Of a stretch of 64,000 nt of DNA, positions 30,209 to 37,998 are shown piece by piece. A program made the position numbers and the translations under genes. The stretch's first letter is position 1, and every line of letters starts with the position of its first letter. Below the pieces are notes generated by a model. That model did not search any database. It was given only the letters and a program-made list of their open reading frames with translations, and was not told where the DNA came from. This DNA is from Convolutriloba macropyga (lineage: Eukaryota), in the NCBI RefSeq assembly GCF_964194025.1, contig NC_134477.1:3224001-3288000 (forward strand), in the 5' to 3' direction.

Positions 30209-32048
30209 TTCTTTTTATTTGTATGTTTTTGATTGAGTTCTTTGTTTCCTCTTGTTTTTCGTACGAAGGGTTCCTGATAATCTAATGGTTTTGTTGCATT
30301 GTAATCCTTCCGTTCTTTTCTTCCTCATCAATTGCGATTTTTCTATCTCGTTTTCTCGTAAATTCTCATTTTTTGCTTTTCACTCCCTTGGCTTTCTCAC
30401 AGACTCTTGTTTTTTTCTGTTCTCCTTGTCAGCTTTCAAACTTCTGTTCTTCTCTGTCTTTAGGGTTTTTTTGTTTTTTTAAATCTATTTGCTCTCCGAC
30501 TCATTACATATTTCTGCTGCCATCGATCTCTCTTTCTCTCTCTTTATGACTCGTTCATGAAACCTTTCTTTGATATATTCGGCTCGCTTCATTTTTGTTG
30601 GTGTGTCCAAAGTAGTTTTGCAAATTTCATTGAAACGATCCTAAGTACACCAGTTATCACGAATAAATCTTCAATGAAAATAACAACTGTTAAAGTTTTA
30701 AGATAAGTTGCATTCAGATAGCTTTTACGACGGACCTGCTAGTTTTTAATTAAATAAGCTGCAATAACAGCCATAATCTATTTTTCGGGGGAAAAGCACT
30801 TTTGAAATGAGAAAAGTGTTCTATTAAATAGCTGCTAATAAAATGGCCGTTTGAATTTGGTACTGTAACTGAAAAAAATTATCAATAGATCATTCACAAT
30901 TTTCTTGATTCAGTCTTAACTAGTGGTTGATTTTTTTTCAAATGTGATTTCAAAACTTATATGTGCATATTTCTTTCCCATCAGCTTTAGGTTGCAAAAA
31001 ACTTCTTGTTTGGCGAATTGTTGTGCAAATTTGGAATCAATAAATGATGTTATTATTTTCACAAGTGCTCTTTAATCAAATTCTTTTAATCGTATTTTTG
31101 TTCGTTTTTGAATTTTGGTTTCAAGTAACTTTATTATACATCAAGAATATATATTCTTTGTTTTGCTATTTTTGTTTAAAACACGTAAGTGGAGTCCTAA
31201 TTTTGTTCGTTAAAAAATTTCATCTGCATAAATTAAGAACTCCAATTATTCTGAGGCAGCATAAATTTTCATTATGAAGACTTTTTCTTTATTTTTAGTT
31301 TGGTATATGTGAGCATTTGTATTGCTTTACATTTTTTAGAGAGCTGAAATGGGAACTTAGTTTTTGAGAGCTTATTTTTTCCATATCAGCTTTGTTTGAG
31401 AGACCTGATATAAACTGTTTTTTGTCTTGATGAAAACGTCTTTGAGTGTACGAATTCTAACCAATCGGACAATTTTTTAGATTAGTTTTCCCGAACGATG
31501 AAAAATCAATGAGTTTAATATTTGGCTCACCTAAAAACAATTGTCGAGATTGTGCGTACATCTTCTTCTATTTTGATAAAAAAGAAAAATTGAAAGTGAA
31601 AATTTCTAACCAATATTACCACTTGGAGTAGCCCCGTCATTTTGTCTATTTAGAGCAAACTGAATCTGTTTCGTGAGTAAAATTCCTTTTTTAAAAAAAA
31701 TTACTTAACGAAGGAACAGACGAAACTGTTCCAGACGAATTATTCACAAACAAAACGGTCTCAAAAAACAAATAATCCCACATAAAATCGTCCACATATC
31801 AAATGCACCAGCATCTATCAAAAAACATAAAAGTTCATATCATTAAACTAATATTAAATTGATTACAACACATTTTTAGTCAAATTATATATTAAAACGC
31901 AATTTTTTATACGGGTTCTTAATTACGTGATGTATTGGTTCTTAATTACAAAAAATTGTCCTTAACGTCAAACACGTTCCTGCTTCGAAATTCATGATGC
32001 GTGCTTTAACGGGTACTGAAACCTTTTTAGGGCCAGATTTTGTTTCAG

Positions 32049-32606
32049 GGTACTACCCTCCCATGTCGACTTCAAGTGATTCCTATGCATAGTTTCTCCT
32101 TCGAAAGGGTATCTGAAAACACAATTACTATGGAGTTTGCCGCTGGAAACGCCCAATGTTCCGTTTGTCACTACAGAACTAGTAATATCAATCTATCAAA
32201 CACAATTATCGGTCGTCATCAATTTTTGTCATTAGTACAGACAGCGAACTTGAAAGAAGCTATTCCCTTCGGAATATTTTTCAAGCAAACTGCTATTTAT
32301 ATAGCAGCTTATCTGCGAAAAATGTCTTTAAAAATTGCGTCGAAAAATGGCCAAACTTTACACAAATCGCCAGAATTGATAGTTTTGAAACTTCGCGGAA
32401 ACGATAAAAATTGCGCCTTATACCATGTAAACGATGTTGCATTATTGAAAAAGATTGAACAGTTTGGTGTAAACAAAAACAAACAAATTGTTTACGTAAT
32501 GACAGACTTGCTACGAGATAACCAATATACACGAACTTTGCGGAATTATTTCAAAGACCATTACATGTTTGAGTCGTACGATTTGCCAATGATTTTTGAG
32601 GGATCT
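32049..32606 (+). CDS. O-fucosyltransferase-like gene, exon 3 (3' end 32600 or 32606)
   Basis: TTTTGTTTCAG acceptor in phase 0; IVLKLRGND and IVYVMTD match the HLRRGD and FIATD motifs of GDP-fucose-binding GT-B transferases. Confidence 0.7.
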
Positions 32607-33089
32607 GTTTCCTTTTTTTTGTCGTCGAAATTTTCCCGACGATACCAGCCATAGTTTAGCAGTACTGAACTATAGCAGAACAATTAAAATATACCTATGA
32701 ATATCAAACGTTTTACGCAGATGCGCTGGATCAGAGTAAAAACAGACTGTTTCATAGTCTGCTAATAGTAAAAGAAGACTATGATCATATTAAAATCAGG
32801 ATGAAATCAGAGTAATTTTTAATTCTGAAAATAGACTGATCACAGTATATTATGAATCAGAGTAAATACAGACTGAACTTTTCTATGATTCAGAATGGAT
32901 TACTACGTTTGGTACCCTTAAAATCCTGCCCTTAAACTTTTAGTTTTTTCCCTGTTTTACGCTACTAGAATTTACTTAGCTCGCTTTCTTGTCACATTTG
33001 CCTTGTTGACATGCACAATTTTCTAAGCAAAAGTAGGAGAATTGATTTTGATGCGTTTTCTAATGATTTTAAATAAACTTTATTTCAAA

Positions 33090-33456
33090 TGTACTAGCCG
33101 GTTCGGTGATATTTTGTTTTAACTCTTTTGGATTATCCTTAGACTAAGATTCTTATCTTATTGTTTCTAAGTTCCAATTCTTGAGTGAAAATGTTTGTGT
33201 TTAATAAGATGAATTTACTTGAAGATAAATAAATAGCAAAAGTGGAAAGAATATTTTAAGTGTACACAGTAACTTGTGCGCGGAGGTTTATCTGAGGGAA
33301 TGATTGAAAAAGGCTGTAGAGAAGTGCGTACGTACAACACTAAAAAGTGGGAGTAAAAAAGATTACTCATGTTACTCATACAAACAGCAAACAGCACTGT
33401 ATTAAATATGGAAATAGTGGAAATAGTGTGGGAGGAAATAGGAGAGAAATGTTACA
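33090..33456 (-). repeat. 3' LTR (367 bp); ATTAAA poly(A)-signal candidate at 33205-33200
   Basis: Identical by eye to 45142-45508 (offset 12052); the ORF track gives the same 60-aa ORF in both. Confidence 0.97.
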
Positions 33457-33470
33457 ACTCACCCCCCTTC
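33457..33470 (-). other. Polypurine tract
   Basis: GAAGGGGGGTGAGT on the minus strand abuts the 3' LTR. Confidence 0.9.
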
Positions 33471-33647
33471 GAAGGAAAATATAAAAACTACAAACTTACC
33501 AAAGGTATGTCATGCATAATAATTCACGGGCTAAATAGTCCATATCAAAATAATATGCTGAAATGCATAATAAACGTAGAATCAGGAATATACGAACAAG
33601 TACAAGTAATACCAGATACGAACAGTGTTACTAGAGTTAATGACAAG

Positions 33648-35411
33648 TTATTTTTGCTGGCTCTGCTTCTTCGCTTTCTGGTTTATCGGCCAGGGCAATC
33701 TAGCATATTTATTTTCCCAGTTATAATCTTTTTCGAAACCATCACCACTTGGGTACCATATAGTAGATAAACGCTCTTTAACAGTTCCCTTGTAGACGTT
33801 GAAGATTGAATTTTCAAAATAAATTTCGGTGTCGATCGCGGTTGCCAAATCAAGTAATTCTGCCAAAGATGTTTGCAATTCCTTGTATTTTTCGTCGTCC
33901 AGATTTTGAATTAGTTTAATTGCCTCAGCACGTTTTACATCGATGTCAACGCTTATTCGCTGAATATTTTTCAGATGTTGGCCAATTTTACGATTTTCTT
34001 CTGCCTTCACGTTAGCATTTCGATACAGTTGTTGATATTTTAGCTGCTGACTGTCAGCTTTCTCTAAGGCTGCTTTTAGTTCAATAATCTCGTGGTAACA
34101 CTGAAGATACTCGGCCTCAAAACTTGGTTTTGTTTTAACATTGTTTAATTGGGCTTTTAGAGACTCATTTTCACGTTTAAGTTTTACCAGCTCAAGATTC
34201 TTTTCTTGCAATTGTTTGTCCGCAAGCACACAGTTTTGGATGGATAAGTCATACCTTGATTCCGTTTCGTTCCAGTTATGCTGTGCTCGATCGAGGGCTT
34301 TCTGTAAGTTGTCTATTTTCTTTTGCATAATATCCTCATTATTTTGTTGCGTTTGCAATTCAATGGACGATGTTGGAAGATTTGCAGGGAAAGCAGGTGA
34401 GCTAGAGGTACAAGGCTGCGGATTTCGTGGAGGTTTTGACTTTACGTAAGTTGAGCTAGAAGTACAAGGCTGCGGATTTCGTGGAGGTGTTGATTTTACG
34501 TTTGGCCCGAGCCATTCCGAGTTGTACCCATTTGGGAAGGCGGTTAGATACTGGTAAGGTACGTTTAGATAAATTTTGAGCGAGTTGAAATGCACGGTGT
34601 AGGTTTGTGTTGATACGTTTCTCATCTTGATCCGACAAAAATTGAATTCAGGCAGTAGTTGAAGGTTTCCATTCTCCAGTTCAAATTTCCCAATCGCATT
34701 TGATGGTAAAATATGGCGCTTCGTATTTAACGTTTTGTTCTCGTACTCTCGATCAGCAGTCTTTTGCCAGATATTGGCCTCTGGTTTCAAGGAATATTGC
34801 AGGAACTCAACAAACTGAGGATTTATGAAGTTTAGATGTTGTTCTCGTTCTTTTTGTATCTCGAGTCTCGATTTTTTGTTGGGAAATTGTCCTGCCTCTT
34901 TTGGGAGGTTGTCGAAAATTTTTCTTTTCTTCGACTTAGTTTCTTTGGCTTTTGCTGTCCACTTGTTAAAGTTGGAAACAGGAGTCTCCAATATTGGAGC
35001 TCTATTTATTTTAGCAGGAACCGTGTCCTGACTGGTTACTTGACCGGGATTGGCAGGTACCTTGTCCTGATTTGTTACTGGGTCAGAGTGATTTGCTGAA
35101 TATGCTGGTGCTACAGGATCCATGTCCTGGGGCTGCGTTCCAATGGGAGGGTGTGAAGGATCCATGTCCTTCGAGAGAGTGTTAAAGAAATAGTGCACTG
35201 GGGAAGTCAAGTTTTTATTTGCATCAGTGCTTGATACGTGATCTTCGGGGGCTTTAGAGGTGCTATCAGACTCGCAAGTGGCAATAACGAGGTTGCCGGG
35301 AATTGAATTTATGTCAGGGATATCAACGCTAAATTCATCTGGAGTGACAATGTCAGGAGCTGGAAAGAAGTCGTCAATGTCGAAGGTCGTATTGACGTTT
35401 AGAGATGACAT
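33648..35411 (-). CDS. ORF3: orphan accessory protein, 587 aa from the first ATG
   Basis: Intact ORF inside the LTRs; acidic Pro-rich N-terminus, basic KAKETKSKKRK, 18-aa tandem repeat (54 bp, 34399-34500), long heptad-rich coiled-coil region and aromatic C-terminal motif (WYPSGDG...RLPWP). Confidence 0.85.
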   Translation of the reverse strand: MSSLNVNTTFDIDDFFPAPDIVTPDEFSVDIPDINSIPGNLVIATCESDSTSKAPEDHVSSTDANKNLTSPVHYFFNTLSKDMDPSHPPIGTQPQDMDPVAPAYSANHSDPVTNQDKVPANPGQVTSQDTVPAKINRAPILETPVSNFNKWTAKAKETKSKKRKIFDNLPKEAGQFPNKKSRLEIQKEREQHLNFINPQFVEFLQYSLKPEANIWQKTADREYENKTLNTKRHILPSNAIGKFELENGNLQLLPEFNFCRIKMRNVSTQTYTVHFNSLKIYLNVPYQYLTAFPNGYNSEWLGPNVKSTPPRNPQPCTSSSTYVKSKPPRNPQPCTSSSPAFPANLPTSSIELQTQQNNEDIMQKKIDNLQKALDRAQHNWNETESRYDLSIQNCVLADKQLQEKNLELVKLKRENESLKAQLNNVKTKPSFEAEYLQCYHEIIELKAALEKADSQQLKYQQLYRNANVKAEENRKIGQHLKNIQRISVDIDVKRAEAIKLIQNLDDEKYKELQTSLAELLDLATAIDTEIYFENSIFNVYKGTVKERLSTIWYPSGDGFEKDYNWENKYARLPWPINQKAKKQSQQK

Positions 35412-35598
35412 GGTAATGTTGATGAAGGAACAGTAAATAATCTTATTAAACACAAACTCATTAATTGGAACTTTTCCAAAGTTTCATTTTAGTTCATACT
35501 AAGTACTAACAGTATTCGTATACCATTTTAGAATATTATCCTATAAATATTATAATAGTTTTACATGCACTACAAATTTTGTTTTGGAGTTTTAAAAT

Positions 35599-37857
35599 CT
35601 AAGGAGGTGCTAAAGGCGCACTTGCACCCTTTTGATTTTGAATGGTAGGATAAATTTTTATCTCCATTTCTCCCGCATACTTCTCCTGGTGTTCATTGGA
35701 GTTTAGCGGTTTGTTTACAGGTATATAACCTGTTTTGTTTTCGTCATCGTTCGCACCATGGCGATTGAAGATGGAAGTGAAAATGGACAGAACGAACAAA
35801 TTGAAAACTGCTCCTAGCAGGATTTTGCTGAAGCCAACTGTTGCTCCCGTTAGTCGGTGTATTTCAAAAGCTTTAAGGAAAACGACAACAATTTCCGTTA
35901 TAAGTTTGACGAAAAGGAAAACTGCAAACCAAATACCAAGTTTTTCTAGGTAGTAAGCAACAGATCCAAAGGCTGACTTGAACTGCTGCGTGAAGTAGTT
36001 AGGTGAAAGGAATGAGTCAAAATACATTCTATTATTCAAACTGAGCGCCTGGTCTAGCTTTCCGGATTCCATGATTCGGACATTGTCTCCATTTGTTAGT
36101 ATTCGTCTAGTTAACTTTTTAAGAATGGTCGCAGAAGCAGAATTATGGATGACATTGTCCCAAAAATCTTTTATTTGGGCAGGTGAGTAGAGACCTGACC
36201 GTTGTAGGTCGTATTCTTCTGGTTCAGTAATGTGGCCAATCTCCGTTGGCTCAAAAATTAAAGGTGCATTTACTGGTTCCGGTGCCGGTGAGAGCTTATA
36301 CCAAGAAGTAGCTACGTCAAGATCTAATTGGAACATATTCCCGTATGTTCCTTGACATGGGATTTCGTTTGCGAAGGGGAAGGTTTGACGTGTAATTGGG
36401 TCAATAAAGTGAGTTTTCCCTTCGTATTCAATTGGAATGCGGTCATAGCATCTATCAAGGATTTTCAGAGGTGAAATAACCTTTGGGCATTGATACAGCC
36501 AAGCAACGCTACCATCAGTGTCAAGAAACATGGAACGATCTCCAGTGAGCATGTATCCAGCTAAACGAGTATTCTGAAGAGCTAACATAAAAATAATTAA
36601 GAATTGTGTCCTCTCCAATTCGCAATCATTGCGTAGAAGAGTAAGCTCAGAATGGCGAAGCCGCTTAGCGTTATAAAACACTAAAAAGTTTAATTTGGCC
36701 TGAAGATGCAGCTCATAGTCAATTTTATCGGCACCAAATTGCTGCCATGGAGTTTCACCATATCGTGTGCCGTTCGGATGCCATCTATAATTTAAACTTG
36801 AATACTCGAGATTCTGTTGTGAATCAATTGAAAGTCTGTAGGAGTTGGATGAAAAACTCGAAGGTTTTCTGGGGTGCCCAGAATCCAAATTGAAACCGTT
36901 GTCATATGCGACGAATAGGTTAGCGAAGTTTGTTCTGTAAAGTTTTTCTGGCTTGCCACAAACTTGTTTCTTCTCGTTAAACACCCTGATTCTGATATCA
37001 AACTTGATAGGATTTGAGCTATCATTGTGCTCGGTGCTATCACTAACTAAGAAGTATATAGGGCTTTGAAATTTTGGTGTGTGCTTCAACATTCTAGCAG
37101 GTTGGGAGAACAATTGAGTGACCAGACAGTTTTCTGGTGCGTCCCAAACATAAGCATGTGGGTCTAATGTTGTAGTGAAGCAACCCTCTTCGTTTAGGGT
37201 ACATGGGAGTTTCATGCTGAATGGATTCCTGACTTCTAGGGTTTGGAAGTCTACGTACAAAGTGACATTTTGCATAAAGGTTACGATGCTTAGGTGCTTT
37301 ACCTCACCAGAGTCATCGCATTCATCTTTGTTTTCGCGTTTTGTTCCGGCATTTCCCCATGACTGGGTTTCGACATCATAGTCGACACTAGCTGTGAATG
37401 TTTTACCCCAGTAGGAGATATTGAGTTCTTTTGTTGCTATTGCTTGTCTACAATCATCTGCAGACAACACATAGTCGGTGGTAATTGATGATTGTTTATG
37501 AACAATGGATGAATGCGAGAACATGCCGCAGTGAAACCTGAGTGGTTGGATCTTCACTCTACACATTGTAGCATCTACTGAGGTGCGGAATGAACGTTGA
37601 TACACATGAACGTAAGCATCAGCTACTTTGACCTGTTCAGGTGAAATTGTGCAAGGAGCGACTTGATTAAGGGAGTACATGCGATTTTTGCGCATTCGTT
37701 TGCAATCATAGTGAACAACTTTTAAAGACTCGGACACATTGTCCTTTTCGTCTTGCTGTTGACTTTGCGTTTTAGTTAAAGTAATGAGTGTAGAAAACAG
37801 AGTAAGTAAGAAAGTAATAGATAAGAAAAGGAATTGTGTTTTTAGAGAACAACTCAT
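35599..37857 (-). CDS. env: Envelope glycoprotein, 752 aa, chuvirus-G/gB-like (class III fusogen-like)
   Basis: Signal peptide; Cys-rich ectodomain with HYDC, CGMFSHSS, GSVAWLYQC, CYDRIPI...FIDPITR and GLYS motifs; N-glycosylation sequons; C-terminal hydrophobic segments; located right after pol. Confidence 0.85.
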   Translation of the reverse strand: MSCSLKTQFLFLSITFLLTLFSTLITLTKTQSQQQDEKDNVSESLKVVHYDCKRMRKNRMYSLNQVAPCTISPEQVKVADAYVHVYQRSFRTSVDATMCRVKIQPLRFHCGMFSHSSIVHKQSSITTDYVLSADDCRQAIATKELNISYWGKTFTASVDYDVETQSWGNAGTKRENKDECDDSGEVKHLSIVTFMQNVTLYVDFQTLEVRNPFSMKLPCTLNEEGCFTTTLDPHAYVWDAPENCLVTQLFSQPARMLKHTPKFQSPIYFLVSDSTEHNDSSNPIKFDIRIRVFNEKKQVCGKPEKLYRTNFANLFVAYDNGFNLDSGHPRKPSSFSSNSYRLSIDSQQNLEYSSLNYRWHPNGTRYGETPWQQFGADKIDYELHLQAKLNFLVFYNAKRLRHSELTLLRNDCELERTQFLIIFMLALQNTRLAGYMLTGDRSMFLDTDGSVAWLYQCPKVISPLKILDRCYDRIPIEYEGKTHFIDPITRQTFPFANEIPCQGTYGNMFQLDLDVATSWYKLSPAPEPVNAPLIFEPTEIGHITEPEEYDLQRSGLYSPAQIKDFWDNVIHNSASATILKKLTRRILTNGDNVRIMESGKLDQALSLNNRMYFDSFLSPNYFTQQFKSAFGSVAYYLEKLGIWFAVFLFVKLITEIVVVFLKAFEIHRLTGATVGFSKILLGAVFNLFVLSIFTSIFNRHGANDDENKTGYIPVNKPLNSNEHQEKYAGEMEIKIYPTIQNQKGASAPLAPP

Positions 37858-37878
37858 TTTGGCAAGATGAAATGTGGG

Positions 37879-37994
37879 ACTGAGGAAGAAGTTTTTGATC
37901 GTCTGTATTTATACTCCAAATGACGTCATCGAGTGAGACGGGACCTCATTGGTCCAGTTTTTTTCTGCACTCATTGGAGTTTTTTTTTTTTTTT
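37879..37994 (-). promoter_or_regulatory. Putative internal Pol II promoter for env
   Basis: Minus strand: A15, CCAATGAG twice (CCAAT at 37977-37973 and 37952-37948), ATGACGTCAT (37920-37929), TATAAATA (37913-37906), TCAGT Inr with +1 at 37881 (TATA at -32); env ATG 24 nt downstream. Confidence 0.75.
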
Positions 37995-37998
37995 GTGT

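Follow-up and report, generated by a model that had tools for sequence, protein, structure and literature searches.

In foamy viruses, the 5′ poly(A) site is blocked when U1 binds a splice donor in R; at the 3′ LTR the RNA folds differently, which presumably excludes U1 (PMC3694450, in the part of the paper drawn on here). Ty1 reverse transcription needs pairing between CYC5, downstream of the primer-binding site (PBS), and CYC3, in the 3′-terminal region with PPT1 (excerpts of PMC4974528 and PMC7969010). Among metazoan env-carrying Ty3/gypsy elements, or 'errantiviruses' in the wide sense, gag, pol and env stand between LTRs (PMC13524379), env of Oikopleura Tor3b and Tor4b is preceded by its own promoter-like motifs (PMC4402516), and extra ORFs in LTR elements are already known (PMC5408684), each according to parts of these sources.

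Here we describe an element, referred to as family A, in a 64,000-nucleotide stretch of Convolutriloba macropyga DNA (the window). A segment of the spacer between its env and the following gene, ORF3, is complementary to part of its own LTR. As in foamy virus, a donor appears to stand upstream of the 3′-end signal in both LTRs (from motif order in the related family F, and by extension in family A), and the donor region would be refolded by a sequence that only the 3′ copy has upstream of it; unlike in foamy virus, where 13 nt of adjacent U3 refold locally, the predicted partner is a long tract lying 2 kb away (family A) or at the polypurine tract (related families B and F) (PMC3694450, same part). 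With Ty1 the element shares direct long-range complementarity in LTR-retrotransposon RNA, one arm being in the 3′ region (PMC4974528; PMC7969010; excerpts), whereas here the LTR itself contains one arm, which therefore occurs twice, and the env-ORF3 spacer contains the other. Like the 'errantiviruses', it has the Ty3/gypsy pol order, several near-identical copies and an env that is a viral fusion protein; unlike them, it has an extra conserved ORF after env, with small-ORF arrays in related families (PMC13524379). The main text of that paper does not contain 'antisense', 'promoter' or 'splic', and its supplements may list family A. Promoter-like motifs also precede env here, as in Tor3b and Tor4b, although they are predicted from sequence, and no LTR-complementary spacer is described in the part of the Oikopleura report drawn on (PMC4402516). 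The arm is real; if it works, it would act like the foamy-virus or Ty1 devices while being a member of neither, and its function is putative. No description of such an LTR-complementary arm in a Ty3/gypsy element was found in the literature, as judged partly from titles and the starts of abstracts.

An env-carrying Ty3/gypsy element with an additional gene

The element is intact, 12.4 kb long and on the minus strand at 33090-45508 (Table 1). The features of env-carrying Ty3/gypsy retroelements that were tested were all found: direct LTRs with TG..CA ends, a 4-bp target-site duplication (CAAA) just outside both LTRs, PBS, polypurine tract, pol order and env. Four sequencing runs combine even depth with an empty insertion site and thus behave as DNA contigs; the insertion is polymorphic, the empty site also being present in these DNA runs. 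Of the 40 genomic LTR matches that were scored, 18 are full-length at 99-100% identity and most others fall at 80-90%. The family A element is young.

Table 1. Features of the family A element and of its complementary segments (window coordinates)
Feature	Position	Strand	Details
3′ LTR	33090..33456	(-)	367 bp, TGT...ACA
5′ LTR	45142..45508	(-)	367 bp, no difference from 3′ LTR
Polypurine tract	33457..33468	(-)	
PBS-like sequence	45124..45141	(-)	
gag-pol, single frame	37999..44151	(-)	protease, RT, RNase H, integrase (Ty3/gypsy order)
Promoter-like set before env	37879..37977	(-)	two CCAAT, TGACGTCA, TATAAATA, CCTCAGT ~30 nt past TATA
env, 752 aa	35599..37857	(-)	Pfam PF24664 Monjiviricetes_fusion, E 5.9e-47
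ORF3, 587 aa	33648..35411	(-)	ATG at 35411
Internal partner, env-ORF3 spacer	35432..35473	(-)	complementary to LTR positions 238-288; blocks of 11, 18-21 and 7 bp
Further pairing block	35486..35504	(-)	in c1 and c2 (older copies) pairs with LTR ~306-319; the window's lineage is one pair short
Target in 3′ LTR	33169..33219	(-)	LTR positions 238-288
Target in 5′ LTR	45221..45271	(-)	as in 3′ LTR
Donor-like GTAAAT (CAA/GTAAAT)	33213..33218; 5′ copy 45265-45270	(-)	7/9 to U1 consensus; putative donor
ATTAAA hexamer within main helix	33200..33205	(-)	candidate poly(A) signal
AATAAG variant hexamer downstream of main helix	33157..33162	(-)	alternative candidate 3′-end signal

Several smaller observations concern the ends and flanks of the element. 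The first 8-9 letters of the PBS-like sequence also follow the LTR in related families B, C, E, F and G; it is itself a small hairpin, and a second donor-like word, CCA/GTGAGG, overlaps it. The gag leader (44200-44700) holds repeated units with TTC...GAAC ends that could form hairpins and are candidate packaging or dimer signals. An LTR variant without 66 nt (33255-33322) is present in the DNA runs, and its deletion ends are not GT-AG. On the minus strand of the 5′ LTR, an ATG-led frame of 54 codons (45265-45431) stops on a TAA within the donor-like GTAA; in an alignment read by eye it is not kept in the oldest subfamily. Plus-strand frames at 32031-32654 and 45908-46189 lie on either side of the element, perhaps as exons of a single host gene into which it inserted in antisense; neither matched Pfam, and the host gene is a candidate.

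The env gene, encoding a viral fusion fold and placed after pol, is intact in several genomic copies. The promoter-like set before it is textbook in form and is not evident before env in five relatives compared; its CCTCAGT is initiator-like and also acceptor-like. The pattern of shared changes, which affect 13-17% of third codon positions vs 2-9% of first and second positions, indicates that ORF3 is a real gene under purifying selection. Related families carry an ORF3 homologue as their last ORF; no outside homologue was found, with all atlas matches below 0.9 and nothing beyond weak coiled-coil matches in Pfam and PDB. A domain of ~130 aa (34422-34949) that has 11 invariant residues and precedes a coiled coil is seen in 7 proteins from 6 families and had no match in Pfam, PDB or the atlas. 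A 54-nt tandem duplication lies within ORF3 (34395-34501).

Six related families were compared, five from the same genome (B, C, E, F and H) and one from another record (G); the env proteins of B, C, E, F and G are 43-49% identical to that of the window. The nearest outside relatives, env P0003 and P0004 from another genome, are 64-65% identical; P0003 was looked for in the present genome and is absent, and scans gave only two distant loci or none. In B, C, E and F (L019, L021, L027 and L054), the interval from env to the last ORF is a dense array of short ORFs, with 9-18 frames of at least 35 aa per family, some of which overlap chance frames. Many encode look-alikes of ~75-90 aa or Cys-rich products, and several are joined by stop-start junctions like TAATG; the arrays suggest polycistronic translation by reinitiation. 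Family G (L059) carries two tandem copies of an ORF3-like gene, each behind a clear splice acceptor.

Complementarity between the env-ORF3 spacer and the LTR

According to the original prediction, the ORF3 leader is complementary to the region of the candidate poly(A) signal in the LTR, and its sequence claims proved accurate. Positions 35440-35457 are the exact 18-nt reverse complement of 33193-33210 and 45245-45262, an adjacent 11-nt block (35463-35473) matches 33169-33179, and a 7-bp block (35432-35438 with 33213-33219) provides the predicted extension to ~40 nt, so that 42 nt face 51 nt of LTR. The target indeed contains ATTAAA, and the partner lies 21-62 nt upstream of the ORF3 ATG. The complementarity is exact and beyond chance. 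Its local alignment score of 41 was reached by none of 300 block-shuffled LTRs (maximum 35), and the longest exact match is 18 nt vs a shuffle maximum of 15; the best of 136 real flanking windows of 367 nt scored 38, real AT-rich DNA coming nearer than shuffles. Self-BLAST of the whole window gave E 0.023. The duplex has a predicted energy of about -41 to -49 kcal/mol, and the helix also appears when the 2.5 kb running from the spacer to the end of the LTR are folded at minimum free energy (MFE). The predicted helix covers the donor-like GT, yet MFE folds without the spacer also pair the donor. Rfam returned 0 matches at E <= 1 across 33000-45600.

The helix starts exactly at the donor-like site. 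The splice, TATA and poly(A) consensus words used here are general knowledge. In family H, TATAAAAGG (TATA box) stands ~200 nt before a perfect CAG/GTAAGT, and in family F a TATAAA (23/23 matched copies) is followed by the donor and then by AATAAA near the LTR end (20/24 units). This motif placement suggests that the donor is transcribed at both element ends and upstream of the 3′-end signal. ATTAAA and AATAAG, both candidate signals only, follow the donor-like site in family A; because of the order in family F, the family A signal may lie downstream of the main helix, which appears more likely than the ATTAAA inside it. All six related families have a donor-like site in the 3′ half of the LTR that corresponds in position to that of family A, mostly followed by a short AG-ended unit. 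No spliced retrocopies were found, and the junctions at 25 loci of deleted or rearranged family A copies show no GT-AG pattern. As a separate observation, the LTRs of B, C, E, F and G (L020, L022, L028, L054 and L059) contain an intron-like GT..AG unit of 34-83 nt, with a branch-point-like CTAAT in F and G, and a AGACTTAT motif downstream of the unit is common to B, C, E and F.

On the opposite strand, the spacer segment could be a duplicated poly(A) site at which antisense RNA would stop short of env and pol, and the plus-strand ATTAAA (35445-35450) followed by a U-rich stretch has the appearance of such a site. However, ATTAAA is only a candidate LTR signal, the hexamer differs in two of six older family A copies, an antisense frame (33357-33770) is open in none of the six, and the complementarity in families B and F comes without such a hexamer, all of which makes this reading very improbable. 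An origin of the segment as part of the host gene's sense strand, also proposed, is excluded: the segment cannot have arisen for the host gene because it is present in all 18 spacer copies genome-wide and this insertion is polymorphic.

The position of the arm bears on another possibility, namely that the helix brings an RNA end or an LTR leader exon to the ORF3 start and so aids ORF3 expression by shunting, reinitiation or a spliced junction. The helix base is 21 nt from the ATG of ORF3, a real gene, and at the end of a putative leader exon. The last 35 nt before the ATG contain no AG acceptor, in contrast to the last ORFs of E and G, and the spacer holds five short upstream ATGs. However, an AG at the helix base occurs in 3 older copies and is absent from the window's lineage and three others, and a conserved acceptor-like TTTATAG site 140 nt upstream could serve ORF3 without a helix. 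The B and F partners, which pair with the corresponding LTR window, are far from any start codon, and the proposed role in translating a downstream cistron is thus unsupported. The argument for this reading is one of geometry, and we consider it improbable.

History of the two arms within family A

Every one of the 18 spacer matches found genome-wide is from family A. The six older copies that have both parts keep both halves, and the duplexes of their own spacer with their own LTR range from -24 to -51 kcal/mol vs -48 for the window; a further older copy, c6, is rearranged at that place and was excluded from the duplex table. In c1 and c2 pairing extends further, to about LTR position 319. 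Changes found in both LTRs of one copy were counted as predating its insertion. By this count the LTR core has an inherited change in 0/29 columns vs 54/326 elsewhere in the LTR (p 0.013), a constraint that could stem from the LTR motif's own role; when all paired LTR columns are counted, 3/41 changed (p 0.17). The proper test lies in the spacer half, where shared changes affect 6/39 columns vs 12/89 env four-fold sites (p 0.79), and in the spacer core alone 1-3 of 32-33 columns (p 0.04-0.30 by way of counting), so that constraint on the spacer half is not measurable in these alignments. The long-range RNA duplex of the original prediction is plausible, with indirect support from related families; the compensatory changes sought as its signature were found in none of 7 older family A copies, whose sampled history is shallow.

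This record is one that a neutral scar could also leave. Template-switch insertions are a known mutation class, and an aberrant switch may have placed an inverted copy of ~50-80 nt of LTR in the spacer, where it would be slowly decaying. Relatives carry a small-ORF array between env and the last ORF, and the event perhaps accompanied its loss from family A. Such an origin agrees with the near-neutral rate of change in the spacer half, with the two pairs that older copies have and the window's lineage lacks, with the lack of any compensated change, and with the shallow history of the family, whose sampled LTRs are 7-16% from the window's. In one older copy the spacer carries a local fold-back insertion of 24 nt, and no relative carries a partner at family A's spacer position. 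However, the pattern is not one of even decay: the oldest copies already show near-perfect blocks, split by a 7-9-nt gap and an unrelated stretch. In addition, younger copies gain pairs through two lineage-level changes, one at LTR positions 272-273 and one of 1 nt in the spacer opposite the GT (polarity inferred from copy age), and the same LTR window is paired in B and F. The scar reading stays strong as a competitor because family A alone lacks the array at the arm's place and because the spacer arm shows no measurable constraint; we regard it as rather unlikely.

Related families and possible masking of the 3′ LTR donor

The relatives were compared under a fixed rule, framed after B, C and F had been seen, in which the donor window from -3 to +62 (65 nt) is set against other LTR windows, and their duplexes were scored by wobble-aware alignment. 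The donor window ranks first in pairing among the 5 LTR windows of A, the 11 of B and, by score, the 12 of F, and the rule fails in C, E, G and H, so that 2/6 relatives pass. In family B, 34 nt pair with the polypurine-tract region at -37 kcal/mol, a value reached by none of 200 shuffles and none of 67 other internal windows. Family F has a perfect 14-bp helix with its partner 27-40 nt before the 3′ LTR. The diversity of this UTR arm is 0.014 vs a median of 0.36 in 26 upstream windows; all of the last ~56 nt before the LTR are conserved, not just the arm. The LTR arm of F is invariant at 13/14 positions in 21 units, which is not significant (p 0.47). On these predicted duplexes, B pairs its donor window strongly and F moderately. 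Their partners are unrelated in sequence to that of A and to each other, and all three lie upstream of the 3′ LTR; replacement of both arms at the family level was seen only in B and F. Across families the pattern is suggestive.

Other relatives gave negative results. A blind test of polypurine-tract pairing in family H failed in 2/2 usable copies (L079 was dropped, its donor not having been found), such pairing is weak in E and G, family C passes a restricted-window test only, and L059 has no LTR-complementary arm above shuffles. Within family A, the polypurine tract matches the donor region only weakly and with many wobbles (-10 kcal/mol), not exceeding controls.

The location of the B and F partners also raises the possibility of cyclisation as in Ty1, in which the partner and the 5′ LTR copy in full-length RNA would draw the 5′ end to the 3′ region and help reverse transcription or packaging (drawn also from part of PMC11381356). 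The B and F partners adjoin the polypurine tract, much as CYC3 and PPT1 share the 3′-terminal region in Ty1, Ty1 reverse transcription depends on its own pairing (PMC7969010; PMC4974528; excerpts), and the 5′ LTR copy, made first, is available to the spacer in unspliced RNA. However, the family A partner precedes the 3′ LTR by ~2 kb and is 2.2 kb away from the 3′ target, a poor end-to-end bridge, and the LTR itself holds the target, at a donor-like site, whereas in Ty1 CYC5 is found downstream of the PBS. Complementary arms near both RNA ends were not found in A and are present by position only in B and F. Cyclisation fits B and F better than A, and as an account of the arm it is distinctly unlikely.

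We tentatively favor a different reading, in which pairing with the upstream partner would mask the donor of the 3′ LTR copy and free 3′-end formation. The spacer arm is the reverse complement of an LTR segment starting at the donor-like GT, and its predicted pairing with the 3′ LTR would hide the putative donor. [quoted passage not shown] At the 5′ LTR, where the partner would not yet be made, the donor would be free for U1 and would feed spliced gag, env or ORF3 RNAs. At the 3′ LTR the partner would already exist 2 kb upstream, and a helix of ~40 bp would close over the donor, keeping U1 from blocking polyadenylation and preventing splicing to exons of the host. The same device would exist in families B and F, with the partner beside the polypurine tract. 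As the partners are upstream of the 3′ LTR, they are present in the nascent RNA after the 5′ LTR copy and before the 3′ copy, and this timing would suit a device that treats the two LTRs differently. Masking would be counter-productive if the ATTAAA inside the helix were the signal.

Each LTR element must make two identical repeats act differently, and the answer has been worked out in just a few retroviruses. That donor masking is a retrotransposon answer to this problem via long-range pairing is more doubtful than the masking itself, though it deserves consideration. If the arm is a scar, it is still a record of how family A rebuilt its 3′ half; if the helix is functional, an invertebrate Ty3/gypsy clade would supply a compact case that can be tested, in which natural variants place the partner at different spots.
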